IMG/VR virus record: IMGVR_UViG_3300045988_183505 | Coordinates: 1-64,000 of that record | From: a virus | Reading direction: 5' to 3' (one strand) | DNA: 64,000 bases | In this document: piece by piece, positions 24,787 to 64,000 of the stretch | How positions within the stretch are numbered: the stretch's first letter is position 1 | Layout: each line of letters starts with the position of its first letter | Program-made: the position numbers and the translations under genes | The notes under the pieces: model-generated | Databases searched by the model: none | What the model saw: the letters and a program-made list of their open reading frames with translations, nothing else | What the model was told of the DNA's origin: nothing

Positions 24787-24799
24787 GTTTACTCCTTTC

Positions 24800-47416: not shown

Positions 47417-47422
47417 TACGCT

Positions 47423-49768
47423 ATGGCAAACGACTTGAAAATCACGCCTGACCAGCTGGAAGAACCAATGCTGGACGAAGGCAAAGTGAATGTCAATTTG
47501 ACACTCTATGACAATCAGCTGGAAGAAATGGCAAGTCGTTCTTCTCTGTACCAGCACATCAGTGAAACACAGAATGCAGACGTGTCTTTCGCTGACTTGC
47601 TGGCAGATGACAGCACAACACTTCAAGCTTATACGGATTTTTATCCCGATAAGCCGCCAGAAACAACACTTAGCCTGCAAAGTGATACCTATGGCTGGTG
47701 CGATTTTGTTGTTCCAACGACAGATACTGAAAAGAATCAGCTGAAAGCCGGATTGGAAGATGTAGCAAGCAGGGAACACACAAGTGCCGATGCAATGATG
47801 TATGAAGTCTTCAAGGAAGAATGGATTGCAGACCACATTGATGATGTGACTATGACAGCTACTGAGGCATTATATGAGAACAGCGAAGAATCAATAGGAC
47901 TGACGTTTGAACAGTATGTGCAGGAGTACGGATTTGAAGACGGTTCTGCACCGCCCTCTTTTGCCGAGTTTTTGGAGAACGACTATACGGAAAGACCAGC
48001 AGAGCAGTCACAGCAGATGTCTTCTGCATCTCCGTATATGAGCAACGATTTTATAGAACAGCCGGAAGAAACTGCTCCTGCTGCGGAACAGTCAGATACT
48101 TCATCAACGAACAATGCGTATGAGCAGGAATATATGCTTTTAGACCGTTTGAAGTCTGATTGTGAATATTATCTCAACACAAATGCAACCGAAGAAAACA
48201 ATCATTTGTGGGCTGGCAATCCGGAAGCTCAGATTGAAAAAATGCAGGAGCTTTATGATATGCTCCCTGAAAAACCGGAATGGCTAACACAGGAAGACAT
48301 CAATCAATATGCACAGCAAATGATTCCGGAAAAGGAGGCTGAAATGGCAATTGCTACTGTTCAAGTCAGAAATATGTTGGTAAATGAGGACGGCAATCTC
48401 TTTGCCACGATGGAAGTGAATCGTTCTCGTATGGAAGAGATGCTAAATGATGCCAACTCGCCCTTGCTGAAAGGAAAAGACATTCACGAGCTGGTTTATT
48501 TCAATGATGCAGCCTCTCCTATTTTGGCGGCGGAAATAAATCGTGATGAATCCGTGCAGGTTTCTGCAATCATGAGGGACGGTTACGAGGAAATTGAAGT
48601 ACCCTTGTCTCTTGATGATAATACAATTGCAGAAATCAAAGATGCTGTCAAAGAAAACGTGGAACAGAGCCTTGATGTTTCTGTCCAGCATTTTTTTGAA
48701 ACTGCCGAGCCGAATCATAATTACTCGCAGGAAGAAGTTCACGCTCTTGCCGAAACGGTCGGTAAATTCGTGACAGCATATCAGGAGGAGCAAGAGCCGG
48801 AAAAAGAATTTTCTCTGGAAAAGAATATTCAGCGTATCGAAGAGGGACTTACTTCTCCGGAAATTCTGCCCAGACTTACTGCGGAACTGGACAAGGCGAT
48901 TGATGTTTCGCAACGAACAACCAGTGAAGGCATCTTCCTTCTTCCTGACAGAATCGTGGAGCAGGCGGTAGAAGTTGCACAGCAGATGGAAATGTACACA
49001 AAACCGCTGGGATTTGAAAAAAACGAGATTGTACAGTTTGACGGCGAAGTTATTATGGACACCGAGACTGCCGATGGAGAAACAAAGCCAACCATCAATC
49101 TGGCGTTGTACATGACAGACGATTTTATGGAACAGGCTCTGGATAGAGCTGGCATTTTTGATGTAAACAATCCAGCTTATCAAGCAGACAGCTTTGAAGA
49201 GCTGATGTTCAATGAAGACGGCACATTCAAAACCTATGTAAACGGCTACATTGATATTTCTGAAAACAAAGAAGTAGACTTCCGTCTGTATACCAGTGGC
49301 GATGCTGAAATAAATGTTCCGCTTTCTGATTCTGAAAAACGTGTCGTGCTGGACAAAGCAGAAGCATATATCGAACAGGAAACCGGCATGACATTTGAGC
49401 AGAATATCGAAGACCTGCGGAACAGCTCTAATGACTGGTATGCGGTGAAAATGGATATTGGCGACACAGTAAATGCTTTCTTTGAAAATGGTGGGGCAGA
49501 GCCGACCACTTCAAAAAGTGGCACATTTACAGTAGCAAAAGCTCCGGAAGGGGAAGCTATCCAACTGATTGACAATGACCTGAAAATGTCTATGGCTGAA
49601 ATGACACCGGCAGACAATGGGTACGTTATCCAAAACTCCATTAACGCAGTTATCAAAGAAGGACTGGAAAATGGCTTAAAACGTGCGGACATGGTTGCTT
49701 CTCAGGAAGTCCAAAAAGAGCAGCCTGCACCGGAAAAGAAGCACAAACAGTCTATCGAAAGAGACTAA
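47423..49768 (+). CDS. large acidic protein (781 aa) with internal repeats, ends KKHKQSIERD
   Basis: Rich in D and E. Block YMLLDRLKSDCEYYLN..HLWAGNPEAQIEKMQELYDMLPEKPEWLT. Repeated ..EIEVPLSLDD.. and ..EINVPLSDSE.. modules. Confidence 0.65.
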   Translation: MANDLKITPDQLEEPMLDEGKVNVNLTLYDNQLEEMASRSSLYQHISETQNADVSFADLLADDSTTLQAYTDFYPDKPPETTLSLQSDTYGWCDFVVPTTDTEKNQLKAGLEDVASREHTSADAMMYEVFKEEWIADHIDDVTMTATEALYENSEESIGLTFEQYVQEYGFEDGSAPPSFAEFLENDYTERPAEQSQQMSSASPYMSNDFIEQPEETAPAAEQSDTSSTNNAYEQEYMLLDRLKSDCEYYLNTNATEENNHLWAGNPEAQIEKMQELYDMLPEKPEWLTQEDINQYAQQMIPEKEAEMAIATVQVRNMLVNEDGNLFATMEVNRSRMEEMLNDANSPLLKGKDIHELVYFNDAASPILAAEINRDESVQVSAIMRDGYEEIEVPLSLDDNTIAEIKDAVKENVEQSLDVSVQHFFETAEPNHNYSQEEVHALAETVGKFVTAYQEEQEPEKEFSLEKNIQRIEEGLTSPEILPRLTAELDKAIDVSQRTTSEGIFLLPDRIVEQAVEVAQQMEMYTKPLGFEKNEIVQFDGEVIMDTETADGETKPTINLALYMTDDFMEQALDRAGIFDVNNPAYQADSFEELMFNEDGTFKTYVNGYIDISENKEVDFRLYTSGDAEINVPLSDSEKRVVLDKAEAYIEQETGMTFEQNIEDLRNSSNDWYAVKMDIGDTVNAFFENGGAEPTTSKSGTFTVAKAPEGEAIQLIDNDLKMSMAEMTPADNGYVIQNSINAVIKEGLENGLKRADMVASQEVQKEQPAPEKKHKQSIERD

Positions 49769-49793
49769 ATCAAATACAGAAAGGATAATCAAC

Positions 49794-50114
49794 ATGAGAA
49801 AAAAAGATGCAGTTGCAGAAAAGACGCTGGCGAAAATTCGCAAAGAAGAAGATAAACTGGCTGGTCTTGAACTGAAAAAAGAAGAACTGGAAAATCAAAT
49901 CAAGGAATGCAAGGCTGGTATTGCAGAACTGCGAAAGCAGGAAAAGCGTGAGAAGCTGGAAGCTATCGCTGAACTGAATGATAAAGCTGGCATTTCTTTG
50001 GACGACCTTCTGAAAGCTGCTCAGTCTGGAGACTTTTTCTCTTTGCAGGAAAAGCTGGAGCAGGCAAGCGAACCACACGACACTTCTGTTTCTGCTGACA
50101 CAGATGCAGAATAG
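49794..50114 (+). CDS. coiled-coil small protein (DUF4315-like)
   Basis: The ATG at 49794 follows AAAGGA. Heptad-rich segment KIRKEEDKLAGLELKKEELENQIKECKAGIAELRKQEKREKLEAI. Confidence 0.5.
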   Translation: MRKKDAVAEKTLAKIRKEEDKLAGLELKKEELENQIKECKAGIAELRKQEKREKLEAIAELNDKAGISLDDLLKAAQSGDFFSLQEKLEQASEPHDTSVSADTDAE

Positions 50115-50196
50115 TGGTTATACATAAAACCTTCCTTCTTAGGGCTGTTTGTCTGCGGATAAGCAGCCTTTTTTCAAAACAGAAAGAGGTGATACT

Positions 50197-50733
50197 TTGA
50201 ACGGCAATTGCCACTTTATCTTTGGTGCAAGTGTTGGTGCATCTCTGGCAATGAATATTGATAAGTTGGATTTCTTCTTTCCCCGAATTATGGACACACC
50301 GGAAATGGCAGTCTTGTTTGTTATGGGTGGTCTTCTCGGCGGTATCTTTCCGGATATTGATAACCCTACTAGCTATGTTGGAAAGCTGACAGCACCAGTA
50401 AGCCGATGGCTCGGCAAGGTTTCAGCTACAATGGGGAAGGAAGGCTGGAATCACAGAGGTATTCTTCATGACCCGATTGTCTATTTGATAGGACTGTTTT
50501 TATGCACTTATCAATTTCCACCGCTGATAGGATTCTTTGTCGGCTGTCTCTCTCACTTGTTTTTAGATATGTTCAATCCAGTAGGCATACCATTTCTTTT
50601 TGGCGTAAAACATCTTCGGCTTGCAAAAGTCCCTAGCAGCAGTAAGCAAGCAATCACTTTGACGTGGATTGCTACTGGAGCAGTATTCTTTGCAGGACTG
50701 GCAGGGTGCTTCTATCCTGCTCTTCTATCTTAA
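50197..50733 (+). CDS. YdjM-family membrane-bound metal-dependent hydrolase
   Basis: TTG start after AGAGGTG. H..FG..., GGIFPDIDNPTS, NHRGILHD and LSHLFLDMFN match YdjM/DUF457 motifs. Confidence 0.65.
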   Translation: MNGNCHFIFGASVGASLAMNIDKLDFFFPRIMDTPEMAVLFVMGGLLGGIFPDIDNPTSYVGKLTAPVSRWLGKVSATMGKEGWNHRGILHDPIVYLIGLFLCTYQFPPLIGFFVGCLSHLFLDMFNPVGIPFLFGVKHLRLAKVPSSSKQAITLTWIATGAVFFAGLAGCFYPALLS

Positions 50734-50776
50734 ATCATACGCAAATAAACCCGCATAAACTGAAAGGAAACATAAA

Positions 50777-51757
50777 ATGAAAGCTTCGTTATTTTTGCTG
50801 ATTATCTTCGTCCTTGTTGTTCTTGCTTCAAGGGTTCGTGTTGTGCCACAGGCATACATTGTAGTTGTGGAACGACTGGGAACATTCTATAAGCAGTGGG
50901 GAGCTGGTGTCCATTTTTTGATGCCGGTACTGGATAAGCAGGCAAGAAAAATCTCTATCAAGGAGCAGGTGGTAGACTTTAAGCCACAGGCGGTTATCAC
51001 AAAGGATAATGTTACCATGCAGATTGATACTGTTATCTTCTATCAGGTCATGGACGCTGTAAAGTATGTGTACGGCGTAGAAAAGCCAATGCAAGCGATT
51101 GAGAATCTGACTGCGACAACTCTCCGTAACATCATCGGCGATATGGAACTGGACGCAACGCTGACTTCTCGTGATGTTATCAATACTCGTATCACCGATA
51201 TTCTTGACCACGCAACCGACCGCTGGGGAATCAAAGTTCTGCGAGTAGAATTGAAAAACATTCTGCCGCCAGCAGAGATTCGTGATGCTATGGAAAAACA
51301 GATGAAGGCAGAGCGTGAAAAGCGTGAGAAAATTTTGAAGGCACAGGGCGAACGTGAATATCAGGTCACTGTTGCACAGGGCGAAAAGGAAGCCAAAATT
51401 CTTCGGGCAGAGGCTGATAAGCAAACCGCAATCTTAAAAGCAGAGGCAGACAAGGAAGCTGTGATTCTTCGTGGTGAAGCAATCAAGGAGCAGAAAATGC
51501 GTATCGCTGTTGGTGAAGCTCAGGCTATTCGTGAAGTACAGGCTGCAACTGCGGAAAGCTTGGTGAAGCTGAATAATGCAAATCCGAATCAAGCTGTCCT
51601 GACATTAAAATCGCTGGAAGCCTTTGAAAAGGCTGCGGACGGCAAAGCAACTAAGATTATTATTCCCAGCGAGATTCAGGGCGTGGCTGGTCTTGCTGCC
51701 GGATTGAAAGGCGTACTGGAGCAAAATAGTGCCGAAAGCAATACAGAAGATAAATAA
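50777..51757 (+). CDS. SPFH/band-7 (stomatin/prohibitin-like) membrane protein
   Basis: N-terminal TM segment, then VVERLGTFYKQWGAGVHFLMP..VITKDNVTMQIDTVIFYQV..TLRNIIGDMELDATLTSRD..WGIKVLRVELKNI. Confidence 0.9.
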   Translation: MKASLFLLIIFVLVVLASRVRVVPQAYIVVVERLGTFYKQWGAGVHFLMPVLDKQARKISIKEQVVDFKPQAVITKDNVTMQIDTVIFYQVMDAVKYVYGVEKPMQAIENLTATTLRNIIGDMELDATLTSRDVINTRITDILDHATDRWGIKVLRVELKNILPPAEIRDAMEKQMKAEREKREKILKAQGEREYQVTVAQGEKEAKILRAEADKQTAILKAEADKEAVILRGEAIKEQKMRIAVGEAQAIREVQAATAESLVKLNNANPNQAVLTLKSLEAFEKAADGKATKIIIPSEIQGVAGLAAGLKGVLEQNSAESNTEDK

Positions 51758-51811
51758 TCGTAAGTATATAAGTACAGCAGCTATACAAAACAACAAAATA
51801 ACGATATTGTA

Positions 51812-51840
51812 TTGACAGTGCAGTTTTTTCGTATTATAAT
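51812..51840 (+). promoter_or_regulatory. perfect consensus promoter TTGACA-17 nt-TATAAT
   Basis: TTGACAgtgcagttttttcgtatTATAAT. Confidence 0.8.
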
Positions 51841-51846
51841 AGTAGT

Positions 51847-52097
51847 TGTGGGAAACCACTAAGCTGGTTGCTCTTTTTCCTACGCTCCGGAAACTTTTTC
51901 ACTCATGTTACGTTTCCAGAGCTAGGCTTGAACGCACCGCCGGAAGGTGCTTAATGATAAAAACGGTGTAATCCGATGGACAGTCCGTTATACGTTTGAA
52001 AGTATCCGTTGTCGGGCTGACAATAGGTACACCGAAGTAGCAGGCATTGTCAATATCGGCAGTGCCTGTTTTCTTTTACCTTGAAAGGAAGATTACA
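51847..52097 (+). promoter_or_regulatory. about 250-nt structured 5' leader (candidate riboswitch, attenuator or small RNA) of unknown class
   Basis: GTGG-GAAA-CCAC (51848..51859). Long hairpin 51879..51894 with 51912..51926. GCACC-N7-GGTGC (51934..51950). The terminator comes last. Confidence 0.55.
52039..52077 (+). terminator. intrinsic terminator inside the leader, just before the RBS of the 52098 gene
   Basis: CAGGCA-16 nt-TGCCTG followed by TTTTCTTTT. Confidence 0.6.
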
Positions 52098-53309
52098 ATG
52101 GAAAATTTACAGCAAAGCACCTATGAAAATGCTGGTCGCTTGATGAATCTTTATGATTACATGGCTGCTATCGGTGATGACAACTATGAAAATCTGTACG
52201 ATGATATTACCCAAGATGTCGATGTGAGATACAGAAGTGATGACAGTGATTATCAGGAATGGGTTGACCAGCTGGCAAAAGAGCATGATTTGTTCTCGAA
52301 AGAAAGCATGGAGAAAATCAATGCTCGATTTGAACCTCAGATTTTTGTAGCAGACGATTCTGCCAAAATCGCTCCTGTTGTATATGATAACCAATACGAC
52401 ACCTATCTGACGTTGGACAAATTTGCAGATGAACTTGAAAGCTATGCAGATATGGACATTGAAGGGGAGAATGAGGTTTATCAAGAAGGTTACTTTTCTC
52501 CTTATTACATGGACGAACCGCCAACAAAAAAAGTTTCCTTTTCCGGCACTTTGGAAACAAGTATGCGTGAACTGGTTCAGGACTTTTATCAGTGGCTGGG
52601 TGAAATTGACGATGAAATCGCACAGCATCTGGAGCAGGTGAGTGAAGATAAGAATATCCCAGCAAGTGAGGTTGCTGTCCTTGCAATCAGCCAGTCTGAC
52701 CGATTGATGACAGCAAACGACTATCTCGTTGCATCGTCTCCAGATATTTATTCCATGTATGAAGATATTGCTGATTACGGATTCAATTACGATGTGAATT
52801 TAGATAACAGCCTGCTCCAGAGCAAGATGCCAGAAATCGAAAAAATTATTCAGGAACATGGTGGCGTTTCCAATCGTACACAGGACGAACTGGAAGACCG
52901 CTTTGAACCACAGGTGCTTGTACGAGACGGCGGCGAAGCAATTGTTACTCCGCTGGTGTACGACAATCAGGAAAATAAGTATATTACAGTCAGCAGTGTG
53001 GCTGATACGTTGAAGGAGATGCTGATTCCTGATGTTCATGGTGAAATCACTGCTGAAAATGGTGAATCTATTCCGTTCAATGCACACATGGACGTAGAAA
53101 GCGAATCTAAACGTATCCTTGCAGACAGCTACAAGCAAAATGCAACATACTTGAAGGAGGCACTTGTCGAAGTAAGAGAGGCATACAAAGATGATATGCC
53201 GAAGCTGAAAGCTACTGTTGACCATTTCAAAGAAAAAATGTCCATTCTGTATGATAAGCGGCAATCAGAAGTGCAGCCCAAAAAAGATTCACAGAACATA
53301 GAGCGATAA
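52098..53309 (+). CDS. highly acidic protein with an internal tandem duplication, ends KKDSQNIER
   Basis: The ATG at 52098 follows GAAAGGAAG. Repeats are ARFEPQIFVADDSAKIAPVVYDNQYDTYLT and DRFEPQVLVRDGGEAIVTPLVYDNQENKYIT. Confidence 0.6.
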   Translation: MENLQQSTYENAGRLMNLYDYMAAIGDDNYENLYDDITQDVDVRYRSDDSDYQEWVDQLAKEHDLFSKESMEKINARFEPQIFVADDSAKIAPVVYDNQYDTYLTLDKFADELESYADMDIEGENEVYQEGYFSPYYMDEPPTKKVSFSGTLETSMRELVQDFYQWLGEIDDEIAQHLEQVSEDKNIPASEVAVLAISQSDRLMTANDYLVASSPDIYSMYEDIADYGFNYDVNLDNSLLQSKMPEIEKIIQEHGGVSNRTQDELEDRFEPQVLVRDGGEAIVTPLVYDNQENKYITVSSVADTLKEMLIPDVHGEITAENGESIPFNAHMDVESESKRILADSYKQNATYLKEALVEVREAYKDDMPKLKATVDHFKEKMSILYDKRQSEVQPKKDSQNIER

Positions 53310-53372
53310 TTGTGATAACGGTTACGATGTGATAAAATTAAACAAATACACATTAGAAAGTTGGGATAAATT

Positions 53373-54239
53373 ATGGGTTTTGCATCAAAAGAACAAGTTG
53401 ACACAATTTCAGCACTAACTTCGCAGCTATATCGCTACTACTCTACCGCCTATTATGAAGGAGTGTACAGCGGCAAATTAGATAAAGCCATTGAACACGA
53501 CTTGATTCCATGGCTTTTGGAATTGAAAAAAGAAGTGGAAGCAGAAGGTTGCCACTTAGATTCGATGGGGGTTTATTTCAGAAATGACAGACCTGTCTTA
53601 CAGTATGGCAGAACTGTCGTATGCAGTTATGACGCTATGGACAATGCCACTATGCGAAAGCTAAAGCTTCCGCTTACCGATGTTAAATTGGTTCGGAAAG
53701 AAGTAGAGGCTGACCTTTATCAGATGATAATGGACTTAAAATCTGGTATGACTGTGGAACAGTTTGCAGAGAAGTATCGTGGAAATGATATATACCACGG
53801 CGTTCCAGAACTGGAGCAGCACATACTGGAGCAGATAAGTTCCGGCAACAGTGATGACGTAACACTTAATGCTATAATCGCCAATGGAAAATCAGTTTCT
53901 GTTATTAGAGCAAATCTTCAATCAGACCTTGCCGTAGCAAAATTTCTATCTCAAAACTACCTTGTTCGTGTGGGATATAACGATGGTAAGATTGTTCTGG
54001 GAGATTCTGTTATAGACCGTTATGCCATTCGGGTTCGCTGTATAAAAAGTGACGCAAATGCAAGTTTCAAAAAAGACCCACTCAAAATCAAATGTTTTGA
54101 GGTGGATTTGAAATTTGCAAATGGGAACAGAAGTTTACTGACATTTAGACCGAGTGATAGCCCTTTTTATGTTCCGCAAATAGAAAAGGTTTTAACTGAA
54201 AATGCAATTGGAGAGGAGAAGAAACAACGTGGACGGTAA
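53373..54239 (+). CDS. hypothetical protein, ends EEKKQRGR
   Basis: 288-aa ORF. Confidence 0.55.
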   Translation: MGFASKEQVDTISALTSQLYRYYSTAYYEGVYSGKLDKAIEHDLIPWLLELKKEVEAEGCHLDSMGVYFRNDRPVLQYGRTVVCSYDAMDNATMRKLKLPLTDVKLVRKEVEADLYQMIMDLKSGMTVEQFAEKYRGNDIYHGVPELEQHILEQISSGNSDDVTLNAIIANGKSVSVIRANLQSDLAVAKFLSQNYLVRVGYNDGKIVLGDSVIDRYAIRVRCIKSDANASFKKDPLKIKCFEVDLKFANGNRSLLTFRPSDSPFYVPQIEKVLTENAIGEEKKQRGR

Positions 54240-55317
54240 TCAATCTATCAATCAGATGTTAGCAATCCACAAGGAGCAGGAACTGGAAATTCAGAACATG
54301 GATTTTCAGAACCTGTCCGACCATGACAAACAAGTTCTTGCTGAATATGCAGAAACCAAAGTGTTGCTGCATAATACAGCAAATGTAATTCAATTTGTCC
54401 AAAACTCTGCACAGGTTATTACAGACGAAAATGGACAAAAGCAGGCAGTAGGTATGCTGGATAAGGAATCTTATGCGGAGCTTTCTGTATTTGCTACCAT
54501 GAATCAAAATCCGGAACTTCTGGAAATGGCGAAGCAAAGTCAGATAACCGAACTGCCGCTTTCTGAAAAAGCTGCCCTCTGGGAAAAAGGGGAGAACACG
54601 CAGCAAGAAATTTTGCTTCACACGCCAGCTACTGTTGATAATTTTGTAGAAGCTGGATACGACAGTTTCTATGTTGGAGATGGCACTGTTGAAGTGCTGG
54701 ACGCAACACTTGCAGATGCGATGGAGCTGATGAAAGATTATGGTATTGACCAATCTGATGTGTATAACAGTACACGGGAACAATTCCGACTGATGCAGGA
54801 ACAGCAGTCACTTGTGAACTATGAATACACCGAAAAAGAGCAGGAACTTTCTGAGGAAAATGAATATTTACAGCGGCAGATGGAATTACAGGAAATTGCA
54901 AAACAAGCCGTTGAAGAAAACTACTCCAAAGATGATAAAGACGGTTTGCAGGAACGGTTCTCTCTCACTACAGAAGAAGTTGCTGCCGTTGCTGTTGCAA
55001 TGCAGACTTACGAATGGATAAAGCTTGCAGAAGCATGGGAACAGGAGAACCTTGCCGAGAAAACAAAAGAACAAGAGCCTGCTGAAATCGTAGAAAGCTC
55101 TGATGGGTATGTCATGGCAATGAGCAAAATGACACCGCAGAATGAGAAACAGCTGCAATCCAGAATTGAGAACGGCAATGAGGTAATTCATCATGAAACA
55201 GCAAGGGAAACAACAACAGACCCTGCACAGGTGAAACCGAATGTAAAGCTGGAAACAGCTCAAAACAAAGGCACACAAGAAAAGAAAGCAAGACAGGTAG
55301 ATTATGACAGGGATTAA
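54202..55317 (+). CDS. acidic hypothetical protein, ends KKARQVDYDRD (start uncertain)
   Basis: 371-aa ORF. Alternative starts are a GTG at 54229 after GGAGAGGAG and an ATG at 54256. Confidence 0.55.
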   Translation: MQLERRRNNVDGNQSINQMLAIHKEQELEIQNMDFQNLSDHDKQVLAEYAETKVLLHNTANVIQFVQNSAQVITDENGQKQAVGMLDKESYAELSVFATMNQNPELLEMAKQSQITELPLSEKAALWEKGENTQQEILLHTPATVDNFVEAGYDSFYVGDGTVEVLDATLADAMELMKDYGIDQSDVYNSTREQFRLMQEQQSLVNYEYTEKEQELSEENEYLQRQMELQEIAKQAVEENYSKDDKDGLQERFSLTTEEVAAVAVAMQTYEWIKLAEAWEQENLAEKTKEQEPAEIVESSDGYVMAMSKMTPQNEKQLQSRIENGNEVIHHETARETTTDPAQVKPNVKLETAQNKGTQEKKARQVDYDRD

Positions 55318-55330
55318 AAGAAAGTAGCCT

Positions 55331-55352
55331 TTGGTATATCTTGTTATACCAA
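55331..55352 (+). other. second copy of the oriT-like hairpin, inverted relative to copy 1 (TTGGTATA-TCTTGT-TATACCAA)
   Basis: The 25-nt stretch 55331..55355 is the exact reverse complement of 39069..39093. Confidence 0.6.
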
Positions 55353-55441
55353 TACTACTATTATTTGCCCTATTTATTTTTATCAAAAAATAACGAAAAA
55401 CCACCTGTACAACAACTCATAAGCAAGACGAAAGGATTCAT

Positions 55442-55825: not shown

Positions 55826-55827
55826 GT

Positions 55828-56118
55828 ATGAGCATGGAATCAAAAACCTATGAGAATGTGTATCTCGCATTCTCCCCTGACAAAGATGTGGAATTTCTGA
55901 ATGACAATCTGTCGAAACCGATTATCGGCACATTGAAAATCAACTTCAAAGAAACTCATATGTCTTTTACCTTCCGCAGTACGAACACGAAGGAAATTTA
56001 CCATGATGAAACAACAATGGCATCTTCTCCGGACGAAATTGTTGTGGACAATGAATTTGTTCTTCCCTGCGAAGAAGGAAACTGGATATTCCGTTTTGTA
56101 GATGATAGAAAGGAGTAA
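55828..56118 (+). CDS. hypothetical protein
   Basis: 96-aa ORF. Its start lies 2 nt after the upstream stop, and the SD sequence sits in the upstream gene's tail codons. Confidence 0.5.
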   Translation: MSMESKTYENVYLAFSPDKDVEFLNDNLSKPIIGTLKINFKETHMSFTFRSTNTKEIYHDETTMASSPDEIVVDNEFVLPCEEGNWIFRFVDDRKE

Positions 56119-56122
56119 ATGA

Positions 56123-59100
56123 ATGTCAAAGCTAAGAGATGTTGGTAATCAGGAAGAAATGATGGCAAAAGACAAAGCCGAGGAACGCCGCATATTCAGA
56201 GAAATGCTTTCTGGTATGACAACGGCAGAACGTAATTCTCTGATTACAAAAGATAAGCTGTTCCCCCCGATTCACTATCAGGCAGAATCTGAAAAAGGCA
56301 AAGACAGAACCGTGCTGTATTTCATGAAAAAAGTACGTGATGCTCTGCCGCCCAGACCTAATATTCCCAACATTCCGTATGGTGCGTCAGCCGAAGCAAA
56401 AGAACAAATCATTCGTACTGCACAGGACAAATATATTGATATGATAAGCGGATATTGTGACCTTATCCAAGAACTCGATTCGCTTGAAGACTGTCGCAAT
56501 TTTCCTAATCGTGTAAAAGAAGAAGGCGTGTCTACCACTCTCCCTAAATCAAGGGACACATATAAATTGACAAAAGCAATCTGCTGTGCCAATGACACTG
56601 TTTCTTTGCGTAGGGAAAGCGAAAGAAAGCAGTTCTGCTTCACTCCAGAAGAAAAAGCACTCGCCGACTATCAGATTCTCACTTATAACGGAGAAAATGT
56701 AAAGGTCAAGCAAAATTACCGGAATGAAGATTATTTGCATATTTCAGGATTCGGGTATCGGCGTAGCATATTCAATGCTCCCCCTGAATTGCTGAATATG
56801 GATAATTGGAAAGAAGGTACTTCCTTTGCGTTCAACATAAAAAACAGTGAGATTATCGCTGTCAATTCTGAATCACAAGAAGCTGTACGAGAAAAAATCA
56901 TCGAATACGAATTTGCTAAAGCAGCCGCAGTGAAGGAAGCTAAAAAAGGGACTGGAACAAAACGCCTCATTCCTCCCCCTCTGAAACATATCCGTGAATC
57001 AGCGACAGACTATCGTGACAGCAAAGATGCAACACAGGAAGATTTGATGGCTACATTCCAATTGAAAGCAGTTGCATTCGGCAATTCCATGCCGAACGAT
57101 GAACGGCAAACACACGCAAATTTTTGCTATGACGCATTCAAAGACCTTGCCAAAGCGATGAATGTTGCTGATGAAGATATTGGCTTAGGCAATAGAATCG
57201 GAATGCAGTACGGAGCAAATGGCAGAGGTGGTAAAGGAGCGGCAGCTGCTCACTACTCTATTTATGCACACAACATCAACCTGACCCGAATGAGTGGTGC
57301 AGGAAGTCTGGCACATGAATGGGGACACGCTCTTGACCATTTTATCGGGGAACGCATCGAAACATTTGAAATTACCGCTTCGGAAGGAGCAGCAGACCAC
57401 TTCGATAGCAATAATCCGATGTGTGGTGTAATGCGTGCTATCAAATACAAAGAAGTTGATGGCAAAACCGTTCCTACAGATTACCTGAACGCAGCGAATG
57501 AGCTTGATGCCACTTATTCCAAAACCGGTAATGGTTACTGGAACAGCGATGTCGAACTTTTTGCAAGAGCCTTTTCCTGCTATGTCAAGGATAAGCTGTC
57601 TCCTGACAATTCTGATTATCTTTGCGGACACACTGACTGGTATGCTCAGGGAGAACAAGGCAAGGTTGCTGTAATGCCTCTTGGTGAAGAACGTCAGCAT
57701 ATCAATGAAGCGATTGATAAAATGCTGGAGACCTTAAAAGAAAGAGGAATCCTGCACGAACGTCCGGAACAGGATAAATCAAAAAGCTTCACCCCTCTGG
57801 AAGTTGAAGATGAGCCGAGGAAAAAGAGAGAACCGTCACATAAATCTGCATCTTCTACCCCGAAAGAAAAACCGGAGCAGTCATCAGAGGACAGCAAACA
57901 GCTTACTTTAGACGATATTGAAGGGCAAGAACCAGAAGCTCCCAGCACTGAGGCTGAGAACAATCTCCAGCAAGAGTTGGAAGAACTAAAATCAGTTCTG
58001 CAAGCGACAAATGATGCTAAAGAGCTGGCAATTGGTGATGTTGTTCGCATGGACGGCTACAAGGCATTGGATAACAAATTCAACCTTGTAGAAATTCCTA
58101 GTGCCTACGGTGTGGTTACAGAAGTGAGTGATGACCATATCTCCTTTGATACTTACAAGGATAAAGATGCAAAGGACTTTACTGGGAAAGAGACTATGTT
58201 CAGCACTGACGGCAATCCGTGGCAGCAACAGCTTGCCAGCCGTGGCTTTGAACTTGTTTCAAAAGCAGAACCGGTAAAAGAGGTTGAACAACAGGTCACA
58301 AAAGAAACAGAGACAGCAGAACCGGAAAAGAAAGAAGAACCAGTTATTACTCCCCCACCAACGGCAGAAGATACGAAAGGAGAAAATAGCGAGATGAAGG
58401 GAACGTTCCAGCATAATACAAATTTGGATATGCTGAAAGATACGCTGGAAAAGCATGAACCTTTTGTGGCGATTGCAGTAAGCACAACAGGAATTGACCG
58501 TAAAGATTTTTCAGGGCATGAGCCGATTCGTGTTGCAGTTGCTCGATACGAATATGACGAATCCGTAGCTGCTTATAAGCCAAGCCTTTCTTTTGATGAA
58601 CAGGTACTTGCAAATAAAGAAGCAATTCAGAATGCGGTCGATAACATAGAACACTACGATGTTTTCAAGAATGCAGGACTGGTTTTTCCGGAATACCGTG
58701 CGAATGCACTAAGCAAGGAAGATTTTCAGCAAAAGTTCAACAGCTTCATGCAGGCAATCAGTGATGATAAACCTCTTGTTATCGAAAATGGTAGCAGAGG
58801 ATTTGCAGCACAATATCTGGACAAAATCGGCTGTGCAGATACCCTGCATACTCTGGCAGAGGAACATCGTGTCATTCAGCAGACCGGTATCAATCAGGAA
58901 TATTTGCACACGATTAAGGGTAGCACATTGGAAGCCCTTCGTAATAAGATGAACAATACAGAAATTGAAGGCAAAATCATCGGTGCAGACAATCGTGTAC
59001 AGGTCATGGCTGAATGTGCTATTCAGTATGGCAGAGAGCAAAATGTACTGGAAAGCGATGTTCTCTCCCACCTCATGCAGGAAGACATTGAACGGAGAGA

Positions 59101-60766
59101 CGATTATTCCAGAAAAGGCGTAGAAAAATACCAGAACAGTGATATTGAAGGGAAATTTGCTACGCTTATTGAAATGGGTGCATTGAACGCAGATGCGGTC
59201 ATGGACAGAGACGGCGATTGCGACATCAACAAACTGTATGATGCTATGGAATCCAGTAAGGGCGTTATTGTGATGCAGGTAGCCACGACCGGCTTTGACC
59301 ATAATAAGCCAAGCCCTCAGCTGACAGGAGAACCGATTCAGATTACTGCTGCTGCCTACCCAATTGTCGATGGAAAAATCAATCCGGACGCTCCGGAAGA
59401 CAGCATTTCCTTTAACATTCAGGCATCTCCTCGTGCTGTAACCACGGCTATGCAACGTGCCGAACATGGTGGCTTTGACACATTCAAGGACGCAAAAATC
59501 AACACTTCTGAATATCTCAGCGGAAAAGGTGTTGTTTTGCAGGAAGATGCGGCGAAGAAAATCAACGAGTTTTTCCAGAAACATGATGATTACACCTTGA
59601 TTACCAATGGCAGTGCAAAAGGCTCTGATTACAGCTTTTCGCAGACTGCAATTTCCAACTTAGGAAATCTGCCGATGACACAGCAGAACTATGTGGATTT
59701 TACCCAAGCGGTAAAAGAATACAGCTATCAGCAGCTCCATAGTGATGCGATTCCGGAAAACGTAGCACTTGACCCGAACAATATTCAGAAATTTTCTCTG
59801 GGCGATATTGCAAAGAGCAATGGCGTACTGAATGTAGACGGAACACAGTACAAAGTTTACTTCATGGCACAGGTTGTAAGTAATGTAGCTGAACAGCATC
59901 GTGAGCTGACACAGCCAGAACAGGTACACACGCAAGAATCCCCTGCACAGGAAATTCCTACCGTACAGGAAACAGCCAAAGAAGTTGAACCGAACTTGTC
60001 TTCTGCTCCAGAAGCTCCTCAGAACACGCAGGAAGCCACACAGCCAACTTCTGAACCGCCACAGGTAAATCAGCCTGCTCCGGAAAAGCAGCCCTCTCCT
60101 GCCGCTGAAACACCTTTTATGGGCGTTCCAGAAAACACACCAGCAGCTGTACACGAACTGCCGACTGAAAAGCAGACTGATATTTCCAAGGACGACATTA
60201 CAGATGCACTTGATTCTGTCGCATTAGAGGGACAGGGTGTCGCTTATGACGAAGTAAGAGACGATGCAGAAAATGCGGAAAAATCTTCTCAAACAGCTCC
60301 GGAAATGCAAAGCAGTGGTTTTACCAATTCCGATGTCAGCAAGCTGATAGATGTTATTGCGGTTCAGAACACCGTACTCACCAAACAAAGTGAAGCATTG
60401 ATGGCACAAACCAATAAACTGGTAGAAGTAATGGAGACACAGAATCAAATGATACGTTCCATCATCGAGTTACAGCACAACAGCATGGGCATGGATAGAA
60501 CCCCTGTGCAGGAAGCCCCAGCCCCAATACATGAAGCGACTTCCGCAGACATTCCTGCTGCAAAAACTCCACAGGAAAAGCTTCGTGCTGTACAGGACGT
60601 GATAAGAGATGTTCGTAAGGAAATAAATTCTCCTTCCGGTTCTGTTGTTGACAAGGACATGAGCATCGTTTTGTCAAAGCTGTCTAATATGGCAAATAAT
60701 CTGGACAAGCAGGAACAGCAGCATAAAAAGTCTTCACCGCAGAAGGGCGTGGAGCAAGGAGCATAA
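56123..60766 (+). CDS. large polyvalent protein (1547 aa): zincin HEXXH domain, two DnaQ-like exonuclease-fold modules lacking the acidic catalytic residues, a P/Q/E-rich linker and a C-terminal coiled coil
   Basis: AGSLAHEWGHALDH (HEWGH at 57314..57328). FVAIAVSTTGIDRKD..EPIRVAVARY and VIVMQVATTGFDHNK..EPIQITAAAY parallel Exo I vvfDlETTGl..IiEiaa, with D and E replaced. Confidence 0.75.
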   Translation: MSKLRDVGNQEEMMAKDKAEERRIFREMLSGMTTAERNSLITKDKLFPPIHYQAESEKGKDRTVLYFMKKVRDALPPRPNIPNIPYGASAEAKEQIIRTAQDKYIDMISGYCDLIQELDSLEDCRNFPNRVKEEGVSTTLPKSRDTYKLTKAICCANDTVSLRRESERKQFCFTPEEKALADYQILTYNGENVKVKQNYRNEDYLHISGFGYRRSIFNAPPELLNMDNWKEGTSFAFNIKNSEIIAVNSESQEAVREKIIEYEFAKAAAVKEAKKGTGTKRLIPPPLKHIRESATDYRDSKDATQEDLMATFQLKAVAFGNSMPNDERQTHANFCYDAFKDLAKAMNVADEDIGLGNRIGMQYGANGRGGKGAAAAHYSIYAHNINLTRMSGAGSLAHEWGHALDHFIGERIETFEITASEGAADHFDSNNPMCGVMRAIKYKEVDGKTVPTDYLNAANELDATYSKTGNGYWNSDVELFARAFSCYVKDKLSPDNSDYLCGHTDWYAQGEQGKVAVMPLGEERQHINEAIDKMLETLKERGILHERPEQDKSKSFTPLEVEDEPRKKREPSHKSASSTPKEKPEQSSEDSKQLTLDDIEGQEPEAPSTEAENNLQQELEELKSVLQATNDAKELAIGDVVRMDGYKALDNKFNLVEIPSAYGVVTEVSDDHISFDTYKDKDAKDFTGKETMFSTDGNPWQQQLASRGFELVSKAEPVKEVEQQVTKETETAEPEKKEEPVITPPPTAEDTKGENSEMKGTFQHNTNLDMLKDTLEKHEPFVAIAVSTTGIDRKDFSGHEPIRVAVARYEYDESVAAYKPSLSFDEQVLANKEAIQNAVDNIEHYDVFKNAGLVFPEYRANALSKEDFQQKFNSFMQAISDDKPLVIENGSRGFAAQYLDKIGCADTLHTLAEEHRVIQQTGINQEYLHTIKGSTLEALRNKMNNTEIEGKIIGADNRVQVMAECAIQYGREQNVLESDVLSHLMQEDIERRDDYSRKGVEKYQNSDIEGKFATLIEMGALNADAVMDRDGDCDINKLYDAMESSKGVIVMQVATTGFDHNKPSPQLTGEPIQITAAAYPIVDGKINPDAPEDSISFNIQASPRAVTTAMQRAEHGGFDTFKDAKINTSEYLSGKGVVLQEDAAKKINEFFQKHDDYTLITNGSAKGSDYSFSQTAISNLGNLPMTQQNYVDFTQAVKEYSYQQLHSDAIPENVALDPNNIQKFSLGDIAKSNGVLNVDGTQYKVYFMAQVVSNVAEQHRELTQPEQVHTQESPAQEIPTVQETAKEVEPNLSSAPEAPQNTQEATQPTSEPPQVNQPAPEKQPSPAAETPFMGVPENTPAAVHELPTEKQTDISKDDITDALDSVALEGQGVAYDEVRDDAENAEKSSQTAPEMQSSGFTNSDVSKLIDVIAVQNTVLTKQSEALMAQTNKLVEVMETQNQMIRSIIELQHNSMGMDRTPVQEAPAPIHEATSADIPAAKTPQEKLRAVQDVIRDVRKEINSPSGSVVDKDMSIVLSKLSNMANNLDKQEQQHKKSSPQKGVEQGA

Positions 60767-60769
60767 ATA

Positions 60770-61687
60770 ATGGGCAAAAGTTTACAACTAAGCTATGACA
60801 GAGATGCACTGTGCAAGGCAATCCCTATAGAAGATGTGATTCAGCTGTATGCAGGAATCCGGACAGACCGGCGAGGCAACATTTCATGCCCATCTCCGAA
60901 CCATGCTGATAAGCACCCTTCCACTAAAATTTTTCATGATTCCAACACTTGCTTTTGTTTCAGCTGCAAAAAAAGTTATGACCCTGTTTCACTTGCATTT
61001 GACTACAATCCGAATTTAAGCACTCCGGAATTGTATAAGAAGCTAACCGAAGATTTCGGCATACCACTGGAATCCGTCAGCAATATTCAGCAGGTGCGAG
61101 AAGTGGAACAGGCGAACCGTGAAAAGCGGTTTATTGACGTATTTCCACTCAGCGTTTCTGAGTGCAAAAGAATCGGTCTTGATGGTGTTCTCGGTGCAGT
61201 GAAGCCAGATGAAAACAGAGAAGATGACGATAAACCGCCAGAAGTTCAGGAACGCTTTCCGTCTTTGATGGAACTCTGGAAAACAGAGAAAGCAGCCGTG
61301 GAATCTCTTTTAATTGCGAAGTGCGATGATACTTTGGACGACTTGAAAAGTGAATTGGACTGGAAAACAGAACACTTCCTAAGTGTCTATAAGGACTTTA
61401 CTCCGCACAGTGCAGATTTTCAGGAAGCACAAAGAATCCATGAGGCGGTAGAACGCTATAAATCGACCGACACTCCTGTCAAAGTGAATATGATGTCAAA
61501 GCATGATGACGCATTATATACAAAATACGCCTTTTTCAAGGACAGTGTTGATGATTTGAAACAGCTCCGTGCTGAAATGTCCAGTGTCCTCAGAATCAAG
61601 GAGAAAGTGTTGAGCCAGCAAAAGGAACGGCAAAAGGAGCAGTTCAAGGGATTTCATAAAAAGAAAACAACCGTAGAAAGGGACTAA
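60770..61687 (+). CDS. CHC2 (DnaG-type) zinc-finger protein without a TOPRIM or primase catalytic domain, ends KKKTTVERD
   Basis: CPSPNHADKHPSTKIFHDSNTCFCFSCKKSYDPVSL matches CPFH....PS......f.CFgCg..GD. Confidence 0.65.
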   Translation: MGKSLQLSYDRDALCKAIPIEDVIQLYAGIRTDRRGNISCPSPNHADKHPSTKIFHDSNTCFCFSCKKSYDPVSLAFDYNPNLSTPELYKKLTEDFGIPLESVSNIQQVREVEQANREKRFIDVFPLSVSECKRIGLDGVLGAVKPDENREDDDKPPEVQERFPSLMELWKTEKAAVESLLIAKCDDTLDDLKSELDWKTEHFLSVYKDFTPHSADFQEAQRIHEAVERYKSTDTPVKVNMMSKHDDALYTKYAFFKDSVDDLKQLRAEMSSVLRIKEKVLSQQKERQKEQFKGFHKKKTTVERD

Positions 61688-61691
61688 AAAC

Positions 61692-62738
61692 ATGAGTGGC
61701 TATGCAATAGACAGCAATGGCAATGCTGTTGCTATCAATAATGCAAAGCAAATACAGATGGTACAACCTTTGGAAAATCGCAGGAAGGAGCTGGTGAAAT
61801 ATGTTTATCAGCTCACTCCCCTGCTCCAGAGTGCAGGGTTGAATGTGAATACAAATCAGTTCACTTTGTTATTTTCTCCAAACGGCATACTCGAAAAAAT
61901 TGTGCTGTTTGCCAAAATACCATTACAGTCTAACAGCCCTTTAGTAAAGCAGGCTTTTGAAGCAAGTACCCATTATGATTATCCGTTTCAAAGCAATCAG
62001 CAGAAGGCTTTTCTAAAAAGCATTTATTGCATTCAGGTAAACTACAAACCAACATGGTGGTATGTTAGTGCCGAAGTTATTACGTTAGAACGGAATATCA
62101 TAGACGGCATTTGGATTTCTGCCAAAAAAGAAGCCTCTATCCCTTATTATGCGTTTCAATCGAAATACCAGCTGAAAAGTGTCGAACAGCCAATCCAGTC
62201 GCCGCAGACGTTCTGGTGTATATCTCTTACCGGAGAATCTTTACCAGACAACGTGAACGACCTGTTCCCACTCATGGCACAGATTCCAAGTAAAAGTACG
62301 ATACTTGCAGATGCAGTATCAAAAGTAAATCAGAACATCGGAATTTCTGCAAAGGATTCCAATAGCAATCAAATCTCCAGCTGTTTAAGGCTGATAAATT
62401 CACCTCTGAATGGCAAGATATATCCTTTGTACAAGGAACTGAAACAATTTATTTCCAGAACATATCCGTATGCAGATGATGAACACGGTGCATTTAACAT
62501 CTCTTACAAAGATGATGCAATCCGTTTCCAGTTGCAGGACGGACGAAAAGCAGAGATATTCGTCAAGGGTAATGCTTCATCTCCCACCTTTGTCTCTGGT
62601 GGATATACCGTAAAGGGCATATCTGCTATGGAAGAAGCAATCGCCAATGGCAACTGCTTCCGTAAGACAACATGGTTTGATGCTAAAGCAAGCCCTTATA
62701 TCCTGCGTAAACCACGAAAAGAAAATAAACCGAAGTAA
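61692..62738 (+). CDS. hypothetical protein, ends LRKPRKENKPK
   Basis: 348-aa ORF. Its start lies 4 nt after the upstream stop. Confidence 0.55.
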   Translation: MSGYAIDSNGNAVAINNAKQIQMVQPLENRRKELVKYVYQLTPLLQSAGLNVNTNQFTLLFSPNGILEKIVLFAKIPLQSNSPLVKQAFEASTHYDYPFQSNQQKAFLKSIYCIQVNYKPTWWYVSAEVITLERNIIDGIWISAKKEASIPYYAFQSKYQLKSVEQPIQSPQTFWCISLTGESLPDNVNDLFPLMAQIPSKSTILADAVSKVNQNIGISAKDSNSNQISSCLRLINSPLNGKIYPLYKELKQFISRTYPYADDEHGAFNISYKDDAIRFQLQDGRKAEIFVKGNASSPTFVSGGYTVKGISAMEEAIANGNCFRKTTWFDAKASPYILRKPRKENKPK

Positions 62739-62766
62739 ATCATACGAAATGAAAGAGGGTAACACA

Positions 62767-64000
62767 ATGGCAAATAAAAGTACCGCAGCCGATGAGAAAA
62801 AGTCATGGCTGAAAAAAATTCTGGAGAAGTTAAAAAAACTGGTTGAGCGAAGCAAAGCTCCCACCTTGTTCCAGAAGTATGAGGAAATCCAGAAGAACCT
62901 GAATGAAATGGTAGAACAAAATGAGGTCAGCACAGAAGCTCTGAAAGACTTGTATTCTATCACGGCAGAAATGGAAGGTAAACTCGGCGGCATGGAAGAA
63001 GAAGACAAGCAGACGCTTGAAACTGGTCTTAGCGACATAGAACAAAGCATGAAGGAAGAAGTTGCCAAGCATCATACTGAAATCACCGGAGACATTTGCC
63101 GAGCTTTGTCTGACGTGTCTGGCTTGGACTATGATGATGTGAAGCAGATGCTTTTCAATTCTGACGCTACACAAATTTTCACTTCCGGCACAGACACCTA
63201 CATCTCTTTGGAAAAACTCGGTTCTTTCAAGGCAAATGTTGTATTGGAAGAAGATGCAAGAAACGCCTTTGTGTTGTTTGAAAAAGCTGATATTCCGGAA
63301 AATGCACAGCAGTATCTCATGGAAAATGATACAGAAAGCACTTTGATTTCCGCACTGAACCAAACATACGCAGAAAAGGTGCGGTCTGACCGTGCAGCTG
63401 AACAGGCTACAGAAGGCATAGAAACTACATTGCCATCTGGGAAACAGCCAAGAGAACGAAAAACACGACTTGAAAGATTTCGTGACAAATATGCAAACAT
63501 GGCAGAAAATCAAGACACGTTCGTCATCAGCAAGCTGTTTGAGGACAACTCATTCCGTCTGAGATACCCTGATGGAAATATGCTTGTTGTTTCCAAGAAA
63601 GCAGAAGGCGAATATCGAACCAGCCTTTATCGTAACACCTCTCCTTCCCTGACAATCAATGGTGCTTCTTCTGAAATTGGTGTCTGGAAAAGCGAAAACG
63701 GCAGAATCTCTGCCAACTTTACTTTGCCAAATGAGCCGTCAGTCAGCATCTTGTTCCATTCCGCAGAGATGAAAGAATATCTCCAGACTATCGGTGTGCC
63801 GAAAGATATGATTCAGCAGCTGTCTGACAATACATCTAACGGCAAATCGGAACGTGTCAACAAGGCTGATTTTGAGAAGGTGCAGAAATTATATGACACT
63901 ATCAGAGATTCCTTCGATAACGGCGTAAATCAAATGGGCGAGGTCGTAGCAGACCATTGCCTTTCTATGCACCACCCCACATTTGGCAAGGGACATACCT
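62767..64000 (+). CDS. hypothetical protein, partial (runs off the window end and is absent from the supplied ORF track)
   Basis: Hand translation from the ATG at 62767 (after AAAGAGGG) shows no stop up to 64000. An internal RERKTRLERFRD resembles the C-terminal tails of neighbouring proteins. Confidence 0.55.
   Translation, partial: MANKSTAADEKKSWLKKILEKLKKLVERSKAPTLFQKYEEIQKNLNEMVEQNEVSTEALKDLYSITAEMEGKLGGMEEEDKQTLETGLSDIEQSMKEEVAKHHTEITGDICRALSDVSGLDYDDVKQMLFNSDATQIFTSGTDTYISLEKLGSFKANVVLEEDARNAFVLFEKADIPENAQQYLMENDTESTLISALNQTYAEKVRSDRAAEQATEGIETTLPSGKQPRERKTRLERFRDKYANMAENQDTFVISKLFEDNSFRLRYPDGNMLVVSKKAEGEYRTSLYRNTSPSLTINGASSEIGVWKSENGRISANFTLPNEPSVSILFHSAEMKEYLQTIGVPKDMIQQLSDNTSNGKSERVNKADFEKVQKLYDTIRDSFDNGVNQMGEVVADHCLSMHHPTFGKGHT

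Follow-up and report, generated by a model that had tools for sequence, protein, structure and literature searches.

The window analysed here is a stretch of 64,000 nucleotides (nt), positions 1-64,000 of the virus record IMGVR_UViG_3300045988_183505, and consists of a minus-strand and a plus-strand gene arm; GC and AT skew change sign at ~46 kb. The subject of this report is a short basic C-terminal tail, …KK…[V/I]-E-R-D, which recurs at the ends of unrelated plus-arm proteins. On the minus strand, the window encodes a type IV coupling protein (T4CP) of the VirD4/TraG family at 22966..24837 (Pfam T4SS-DNA_transf, 3.8e-48; TraG-D_C, 2.4e-25), which is the candidate receptor of the tail, as well as a VirB4-like ATPase (34977-37535) and a MobV (Mob_Pre) relaxase (37553-38908, C-terminus ...EERKLEQTKA), both identified with Pfam. 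The same arm also encodes a topoisomerase III and a RecD-like helicase, and components of a type IVB secretion system were not seen in the window. Next to the T4CP, a 317-aa protein is encoded at 24800-25753. The plus strand harbors, at 46958..64000, the polyvalent-protein operon that carries all of the tails and in which LPD11 (2e-26), YdjM, Band_7 (in an SPFH/Band_7 protein), LPD1 (9e-16) and CHC2 zinc-ribbon domains were detected. Its LPD1 polyvalent protein of 1547 amino acids (aa) contains the zincin motif HEWGHALDH, of which HEWGHALD is invariant in the LPD1 alignment. The marks of a polyvalent-protein operon, namely LPD domains, a zincin peptidase motif and genes of a type IV secretion system (T4SS; here T4CP, VirB4-like ATPase and Mob_Pre relaxase), are all present.

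In full-length relatives the operon continues with genes for a 708-aa protein (ending SEERT), a DHH protein (KKGAERE) and a 324-aa protein (KSNIER), and ends at a reverse-strand integrase gene. Since this integrase closes the operon and near-identical copies of the element are embedded in metagenomic contigs of 350-380 kb, the element is, as judged from its sequence, an integrative conjugative element (ICE) of gut Clostridia. Distant relatives carry Ruminococcus or Clostridium labels of metagenome-assembled genomes, and megablast against annotated plasmid and phage collections returned no close DNA relative. Comparison to PHROGs gave primase-like matches for the zinc-ribbon protein and three marginal matches (E 0.003-0.007, unknown function) for a 108-aa protein; for the remaining plus-arm proteins without annotation, PHROGs yielded nothing else.

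The tails, written here up to the stop codon, were verified in a listing of open reading frames (ORFs) and by direct reading of the last 16 codons of each ORF, and the tail sequences and end coordinates reported in a first-pass annotation of the window were exact throughout. Two of the tails are uncoupled from the following gene. The 781-aa LPD11 protein (gene 47423-49768) ends in KKHKQSIERD (49736..49768), encoded by ATC GAA AGA GAC TAA at its end, and the following gene has its own Shine-Dalgarno sequence (SD), CAGAAAGGAU, which begins ~9 nt past the stop. The 403-aa protein (gene 52098-53309) ends in KKDSQNIER (53280..53309) and is followed by the next gene after 63 nt. In two further cases the tail is coupled to the next gene and its codons double as the SD. 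The tail KKSTKRKNVERD (55787..55825) of the 127-aa protein (gene 55442-55825) ends in GTA GAA AGG GAT TAA, after which GT and the ATG at 55828 follow, and the tail KKKTTVERD (61658..61687) of the 305-aa CHC2 zinc-ribbon, primase-like protein (gene 60770-61687) ends in GTA GAA AGG GAC TAA, followed by AAAC and the ATG at 61692. A loose member with Y-D-R-D in place of the consensus, KKARQVDYDRD (55282..55317), terminates a 362/371-aa protein; it is uncoupled, with 124 nt to the next gene. A coupled variant that is not of the hydrophobic-E-R type, KKSSPQKGVEQGA (60725..60766), ends the 1547-aa polyvalent protein (gene 56123-60766).

Ends in [VI]ER[D] were thus found in 4 of 13 plus-arm products and in none of ~55 minus-arm products from a greedy ORF call (hypergeometric p ~9e-4). 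From the internal rate of [VIL]ER, ~0.0009 per residue, ~0.01 such termini would be expected among 13 proteins. The pattern 'basic residue ...[VILMY]ER[DE]' occurs in the plus-arm proteins exclusively as the three ERD termini and never internally. That the minus arm is devoid of these tails, as the first-pass annotation had noticed, agrees with the absence of any ER, ERD or ERE end among its ~55 products. The circle of members drawn there was too wide. Of the tails that it listed as related, GEEKKQRGR (54209..54239; 288-aa protein) is SD-coded and lies outside the motif, as does KPRKENKPK (62709..62738; 348-aa protein), a generic basic tail that keeps 6 of 12 residues in the related locus L001 and reads KKKKSRKEK in the L002 orthologue, while DYDRD belongs only under the loosened Y-D-R-D form. 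An internal RERKTRLERFRD in the partial last ORF had been taken for a tail retained at a fusion junction; it is not a tail, because the L001 orthologue has EKRKARPIKFRD at the same place.

To describe the RNA side of the tails, every plus-arm start codon was examined by folding the 22 nt ahead of it against the general Firmicutes anti-SD of 16S rRNA, a sequence not derived from this organism. Nearly all plus-arm starts are preceded by an SD of the (U)(A)GAAAGG type, either intergenic or within the upstream ORF. For six starts (47423, 54229, 55828, 56123, 60770 and 61692) the best pairing lies inside the preceding ORF, at a spacing of 5-8 nt from the start. In the two V-E-R-D tails, GTA GAA AGG GA reads UAGAAAGGGA as SD (55812-55821 and 61674-61683, -9.3 kcal/mol), placed 6-8 nt before the ATG, in the former case 6 nt before the start at 55828. 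The remaining in-ORF SDs are UAGAAAGGAGU at 56106-56116 (-12.8 kcal/mol), GAGCAAGGAGC at 60752-60762 (-8.2 kcal/mol), AAGAAAGGAU at 47405-47414 (-10.1 kcal/mol), 8 nt ahead of the start at 47423, and UGGAGAGGAGAAGAA at 54209-54223 (-13.6 kcal/mol). Two of these junctions encode ends that are plainly SD-coded: the tail ...DDRKE of a 96-aa protein (56101..56118), which serves as a control, with AGA AAG GAG TAA, ATGA and the ATG at 56123, and the tail ...SKKG of a 152-aa membrane protein (47402..47416), with AAG AAA GGA TAA. The SD overlap which the first-pass annotation had pointed out for 55825, 61687 and 60766 is therefore real and extends to more junctions than it listed (also 47416, 54239 and 56118). 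It was likewise right that such overlap leaves 49768 and 55317 unexplained, the one having an own SD downstream and the other the 124-nt spacer. At 54229, the 371-aa ORF (ATG 54202) more likely begins at a GTG, which fits the 362-aa product of L001, L004 and L008 and is preceded at a distance of 5 nt by a strong SD, GGAGAGGAG. Read from this GTG, the ORF overlaps the 288-aa gene by 11 nt.

Informative for the conservation of the tails are one moderately diverged lineage (L001/L007, 72-80% identical) and one distant lineage (L002). When the window lineage is compared to L001/L007, GAAAGGGA does not vary at any coupled ER[DE] junction, and this invariance is explained by its role as in-ORF SD in translational coupling, exactly as seen at 55825>55828, 61687>61692, 56118>56123, 60766>60770, 47416>47423 and 54239/54229. 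The encoded peptides vary: the 305-aa protein ends in TVERD in the window and in NVERE (with GAAAGGGAA) in L001, and the coupled DHH protein in GAERE or GVERD with GAAAGGGA unchanged. In L001, the ORF of the 96-aa protein stops earlier and the same AAGGAG then lies 3' of the stop, and a junction of L057/L058 retains the SD while the peptide is either QERE or QKGE. Because the nucleotides are fixed while the peptide drifts, slips out of the ORF or is exchanged, the RNA is, on these alignments, the constrained object at coupled junctions. The last codons of the 288-aa protein are identical in L001, since two reading frames overlap there. The identical 15-mers at 55811 and 61673 are the only matching DNA pair and the uncoupled tails share no nucleotide identity, which excludes a repeated DNA cassette or recombination boundary. 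A programmed frameshift or readthrough at GAAAGGGAT-TAA was set aside on inspection by eye: no X XXY YYZ heptamer fits the frame, and the frames further downstream are not the same from junction to junction.

In the window lineage four tails are uncoupled, namely SIERD, NIER, DYDRD and the tail of the operon's last gene (NIER or DVER), which is followed by the reverse-strand integrase gene. The Arg codon is AGG only when the next ATG is 2-4 nt away, whereas the uncoupled tails use AGA, CGA or CGG. Because of these non-SD Arg codons and the lack of a coupled downstream gene, SD overlap does not account for the four tails. The IER end of the 403-aa protein is encoded by ATA GAG CGA TAA in the window and by ATC GAA CGG TGA in L001, so that three codons differ synonymously and the stop is changed as well. 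The codons of SIERD are kept in the L007 orthologue, save ATA for Ile. In the 127-aa family, P-(K-rich)-x-hydrophobic-E-R is kept at 32% identity between PKKSTKRKNVERD of the window and KPVTKKKENSYER of L054, and the L054 orthologue has no coupled gene downstream. The polyvalent protein has the same PQKGVEQGA tail in L001, although its codons show five synonymous changes and the two proteins are 56% identical overall; the SD-likeness of the tail is also retained. In tagged proteins the tail matches or exceeds the preceding 40 residues in conservation (polyvalent protein, 10/12 versus 21/40), and untagged tails decay (Band_7 protein, 3/12 versus 39/40; 96-aa protein, 3/12 versus 32/40). Conservation of the tail as protein in homologues, on which the proposal of the first-pass annotation depended, was hence observed for uncoupled tails (IER, with all codons changed); at coupled ones it is the nucleotides that stay fixed, and the VEQGA tail retains both peptide and SD-likeness.

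Several rearrangements were noticed among the carriers. The 781-aa LPD11 protein is strongly modular, with the same C-terminal module and SIERD tail behind at least three N-terminal modules (P0006, P0007-9 and P0010), and a 494-aa form (P0011-15) that lacks the last module ends in ...EIDEPEI. In L008 (10001-10414, P0125) a natural deletion has joined residues 1-67 of the 127-aa protein to the C-terminal end of the last gene product (...RPKSNIER); the polyvalent, zinc-ribbon, 348-aa, 708-aa and DHH genes are removed and the integrase adjoins. L004 (18599-20500 and 20525 onward) is a near-identical copy in which an in-frame TAG divides the polyvalent gene into products of 633 aa and 905 aa; this may reflect a pseudogene, a gene that is naturally split or an error of sequencing.

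The carrier families are very small (3 clusters for the 305-aa protein, 4 clusters for the 127-aa protein and 7 matches for the 403-aa protein among 1.8 billion representatives), and sampling was therefore widened through the LPD1 domain. With the LPD1 region 54 further loci were fetched from genomes, metagenomes and IMG/VR (33-48% LPD1 identity), giving 66 related loci with 293 proteins of at least 80 aa after dereplication at ~75% identity; genes were called crudely as longest ORFs. In this set ER was the top C-terminal dipeptide (17 versus 6 for the runner-up), and ER, ERD and ERE together made up 24 tails, compared to ~1 expected from the internal frequency. A hydrophobic residue (M, I, V, Y or L) immediately precedes ER in 21 of the 24, against 17% at neighbouring tail positions (binomial p 1e-13), and Lys or Arg at positions -13..-5 are more frequent in tagged proteins than in others (3.0 versus 1.3, p 8e-9). 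Coupled proteins carry the tail in 14 of 125 cases, 11 of them with the hydrophobic residue; among 168 uncoupled proteins there are 10 tails, all 10 with the hydrophobic residue (p 2e-8). All tails lie on the LPD1 strand (24/183, versus 0/110 on the opposite strand). None of the 24 carriers has a predicted transmembrane segment, compared to 92 of 269 other proteins, and the carrier bodies are acidic. By whole-protein homology the 24 tails fall into 17 families and by their last 120 residues into 20, which excludes a common homologous C-terminal domain behind the tails. The motif is non-random, specific for the terminus and confined to the strand of the LPD1 operon, across 17-20 unrelated families.

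Tails were frequent in the window lineage (6/~16), L001 (5/13) and L054 (5/12) and sparse elsewhere, with 1-3 per element. Those of L054 are KNDMER, NYDMER, KKDIER, KDDMER and NSYER. The polyvalent proteins of L018 and L013 end in GMER and GLER, although their C-terminal regions are not homologous and the genes that follow them differ, and the polyvalent protein of L014 (a 1652-aa gene) ends in QKDSQRENIERE, close to PKKDSQNIER of the window. Directly 3' of the L014 polyvalent stop (…NIERE) a tandem direct repeat, ATCTGGTGAAT ATCTGGTGAAT, was seen at 6057-6090, with the contig end close by. In L057 (3083-3120 and 14726-14765) and L058 (3278-3315 and 14726-14765) an intergenic AATAATCAAAACTATTGACA recurs after several genes, including one ending EDYER and the polyvalent gene, and looks like a reiterated promoter. 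L002/L065 have another recurrent tail, of acidic-aromatic type (DDFGLD, DYDMD[KR], EFDFDKE, EPDFD, DFDMCLD; e.g. L065 5789-7489, 8628-9605, 9989-13567 and 13574-14056), and D[FY][DG] within the last 6 residues occurs in 6 proteins of the dereplicated set versus ~1 expected. The DYDRD end of the window (55303-55317) is orthologous to ends in DYDMDK or DYDMDR of L002/L065, and an extra LPD11 gene of L004-L006 ends in EFDFDKE.

Some further sites lie between the tailed genes of the window. The stop of the 403-aa gene is followed, from the very next base on, by a promoter-like site (53310-53338, TTGTGA-17-TAAAAT with TG) whose -10 part is conserved in L001, and a perfect TTGACA-17-TATAAT lies upstream of the same gene at 51812-51840. 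Because of these two sites the plus arm is probably organized in several transcription units rather than one operon. A 13-bp stem-loop with a T-rich tail (52039-52070), between the promoter at 51812 and the start at 52098, could be a leader or attenuator. The 124-nt spacer that follows DYDRD contains an AT-rich inverted repeat, TTGGTATA-TCTTG-TTATACCAA (55330-55352), which might serve as an operator or form a hairpin in the RNA; its conserved and slightly longer counterpart in L001 is GTTGGTATA-CCTTG-TTATACCAAC.

Taken together, the counts and the few orthologue comparisons support a real C-terminal motif at the protein level, and we propose that the tail is a dual-coded short linear motif. 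It is built from a stretch rich in Lys and Arg (about -13 to -5), after which come a hydrophobic residue, Glu or in some cases Asp, Arg and, optionally, a terminal Asp or Glu. Its carriers are accessory proteins, soluble and acidic, that the polyvalent-protein operon encodes in a family of conjugative elements of Clostridia. Where genes are 2-4 nt apart the motif is written as GTA GAA AGG GAY and simultaneously provides the SD of the next gene (UAGAAAGG), so that much of the conservation there lies in the mRNA; where no gene follows, the same peptide is reached via other Arg codons and persists between lineages. The peptide may act as a docking or recruitment signal, most likely recognised by the T4CP of the element or by an adaptor, so that tagged proteins would enter the recipient together with the DNA. 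Candidates for such cargo are the LPD11 protein, the primase-like zinc-ribbon protein, the DHH nuclease-like protein and several further proteins, as well as the polyvalent protein of other elements. To a dual-coded motif whose peptide recruits proteins for transfer with the DNA we assign a probability of roughly 40%. The export function through a T4SS, which the first-pass annotation had suggested, is plausible by analogy, and a translocation signal read by the T4CP is the leading candidate because the element is conjugative, because proteins of polyvalent operons are predicted to accompany the DNA and because C-terminal T4SS signals are known.

Signals of this general kind occur in several systems. 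The Dot/Icm E-block of Legionella and Coxiella is likewise a C-terminal linear signal common to many unrelated substrates, but it is acidic; a Glu-rich block ~10-17 residues from the C-terminus is missing from the present tails, which are basic at -13 to -5, and, as said, type IVB components were not seen in the window. One receptor that reads a terminal peptide is also found in the loading of encapsulin cargo and in the F system, in which the C-terminal tail of TraD binds TraM; sequences and machinery are unrelated to those described here, and the comparison goes no further than analogy. Substrates of the Agrobacterium VirB/VirD4 system carry a positively charged C-terminal transport signal (Vergunst et al. 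2005, as cited in PMC8406263), and conjugative T4SSs transfer plasmid-encoded and host proteins, some of them via C-terminal signals, with many such proteins in F-like systems (PMC8406263, PMC11288057); signals of this kind move proteins in the F, pKM101 and RP4 conjugation systems (PMC11288057). Similar to these, the tails are short, unstructured and net positive, lie at the extreme C-terminus (within the last ~20-50 residues, as in VirB/D4-type signals) of unrelated proteins of a T4SS-bearing element, and the proteins that bear them might act in the recipient. Models of the 127-aa and 305-aa proteins were of low confidence and poor overall (mean predicted local distance difference test, pLDDT, 49.5 and 65.2), with low pLDDT in the tail residues of both, e.g. 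296-305 of the 305-aa protein. Unlike the Arg-rich VirB/D4 consensus R-x7-R-x-R-x-R, the charge is mainly that of Lys; in place of Arg-x-Arg there is just one conserved Arg, at position -1 or -2, and a defined hydrophobic-Glu-Arg-(Asp/Glu) closes the tail; further, the host system is Gram-positive (Clostridia) and the tail is known from sequence alone. The polyvalent proteins of conjugative elements, for which delivery with the DNA is predicted by Iyer, Burroughs, Anand, de Souza and Aravind 2017 (PMC5512222), share with the operon LPD1 and LPD11, the zincin peptidase motif, a primase-like zinc ribbon and the linkage to a T4SS. Those systems are described as domain architectures, and a shared C-terminal linear motif does not figure in the passages of that paper searched, whereas here many modules are separate tailed genes.

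A number of observations weigh against a transfer signal. The relaxase, as the canonical T4SS substrate, has no hydrophobic-E-R tail, and the link between tail and T4CP is one that we infer. At coupled junctions the invariant part is the nucleotide core, as in the change from VERD to AERE in the DHH protein or from QERE to QKGE in L057/L058, and since intergenic SDs, too, usually read U(A)GAAAGG, the GTA Val codon of coupled V-E-R tails may be SD-driven and needs no reason at the peptide level. Per-gene conservation is statistically weak with two informative lineages, the probability that three residues are kept at 60% identity being ~0.2, and the comparison set contains spurious ORFs because gene calling was mechanical. 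In L002/L065 the tail is missing from the orthologues of three proteins, the 127-aa, 305-aa and polyvalent ones: the 127-aa homologue of L002 ends 11 residues earlier, without the tail extension, and the zinc-ribbon orthologue ends in GRDDI. ER tails were also not found in the L046, L012 and L015 groups, although LPD1 polyvalent proteins are present. Absence of the tail from orthologues, named in the first-pass annotation as an outcome that would speak against its export hypothesis, was therefore encountered in part. In the three groups VirB4 is differently placed and only 24-27% identical, which is merely suggestive of co-variation with the tail, and no T4CP homologue was found within the fetched flanks of the other loci.

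The tails might instead be a pure by-product of the mRNA, in which purine-rich GAA AGG or GAG AGR codons form in-ORF SDs, the AAA/AAG-rich run is an unstructured landing zone for ribosomes, the peptide is functionless and the uncoupled ER tails are shuffled relics of coupled junctions. The six in-ORF pairings, GAAAGGGA fixed in both lineages amid varying flanking residues, RKE as SD read through, and the SD of L057/L058 that outlives its peptide are what such a by-product would leave; moreover, the three DMER tails of L054 share GAY ATG GAG AGR TAA with a start codon 1-3 nt later, ATGA overlaps (e.g. in L065 and L018) force a final NGA codon for Arg or Gly, and the elements are highly mosaic. 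However, ER[DE] still ends the 10 uncoupled proteins, each time behind a hydrophobic residue, several tails use CGA, CGG or CGT, which have no SD character and at which Arg is reached only via synonymous steps, and anti-SD pairing explains neither the ATG of M-E-R nor the ATC or ATA of I-E-R. The many coupled in-ORF-SD junctions of the minus arm yield SED, GEGAD, SEG, GEGA and SEEK but never ER, and the Lys/Arg patch and the soluble acidic carriers are found with uncoupled tails as well. These features go beyond known in-ORF SD coupling, and we consider a pure by-product of the mRNA unlikely. Chance composition, that is K/E/R/Q-rich low-complexity C-termini on a purine-rich strand which happen to end in ER, is very unlikely. 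The plus strand is indeed purine-rich, R, D, K and E are generally enriched at C-terminal positions in the survey set, and elements outside the window, L001 and L054 lineages have just 1-3 such tails; yet this falls far short of 4 in 13 where ~0.01 are expected, of 24 against ~1, of the hydrophobic residue in 21 of 24 and of the complete lack of internal occurrences.

A real peptide motif whose partner is not a secretion machine would show identical motif statistics. The tail could be a docking peptide that holds split-off modules to the polyvalent scaffold, a recognition or cleavage handle for the HEWGH zincin peptidase, a degron that limits the proteins in the donor, or a basic tail that binds nucleic acids. 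Carriers adjoin the LPD1 polyvalent protein with its HEWGHALDH motif, modules are repeatedly fused and split in the family, and the untailed relaxase fits as well. Known bacterial C-degrons are non-polar or MuA-like and not of the ...ERD type. Processing of polyvalent proteins by their own metallopeptidase domains has been proposed (PMC5512222); the motif is never internal, however, where the linker or cleavage site of fused polyvalent forms would sit, and the partner is hypothetical. We consider a partner of this sort unlikely too. As for recruitment into the recipient, its most far-reaching form is doubtful: the basic patch and hydrophobic-Glu-Arg-(Asp/Glu) would be the first sequence-defined translocation signal of a Gram-positive conjugative T4SS, marking 'establishment' proteins of the element (anti-defence, primase-like, nuclease-like and polyvalent) that are injected before gene expression, with codons co-opted as ribosome-binding sites where genes are tightly packed.

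Both ingredients, C-terminal secretion or docking signals and in-ORF SDs, are of already known kinds. In the literature searched, neither such a C-terminal motif nor a protein signal for Gram-positive (Clostridia) conjugative elements or for the delivery of polyvalent proteins is described, and the part of …KK…[V/I]-E-R-D that goes beyond the SD looks like a genuine, previously undescribed C-terminal tag. The coupled tails are a clean case of dual coding, with the same 8-10 nt serving as ribosome-binding site and conserved peptide, and they advise caution at operon junctions, both against inferring conservation of a protein and against dismissing tails as SD read-through. The tag could mark proteins for export to the recipient cell. 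For the polyvalent and other leading or establishment proteins of Gram-positive elements, delivery with the DNA has been predicted as the route into the recipient (PMC5512222). If the proposal is true, a short C-terminal tag would make this delivery directly testable and would allow the substrate repertoires of ICEs of gut Clostridia to be predicted from sequence.

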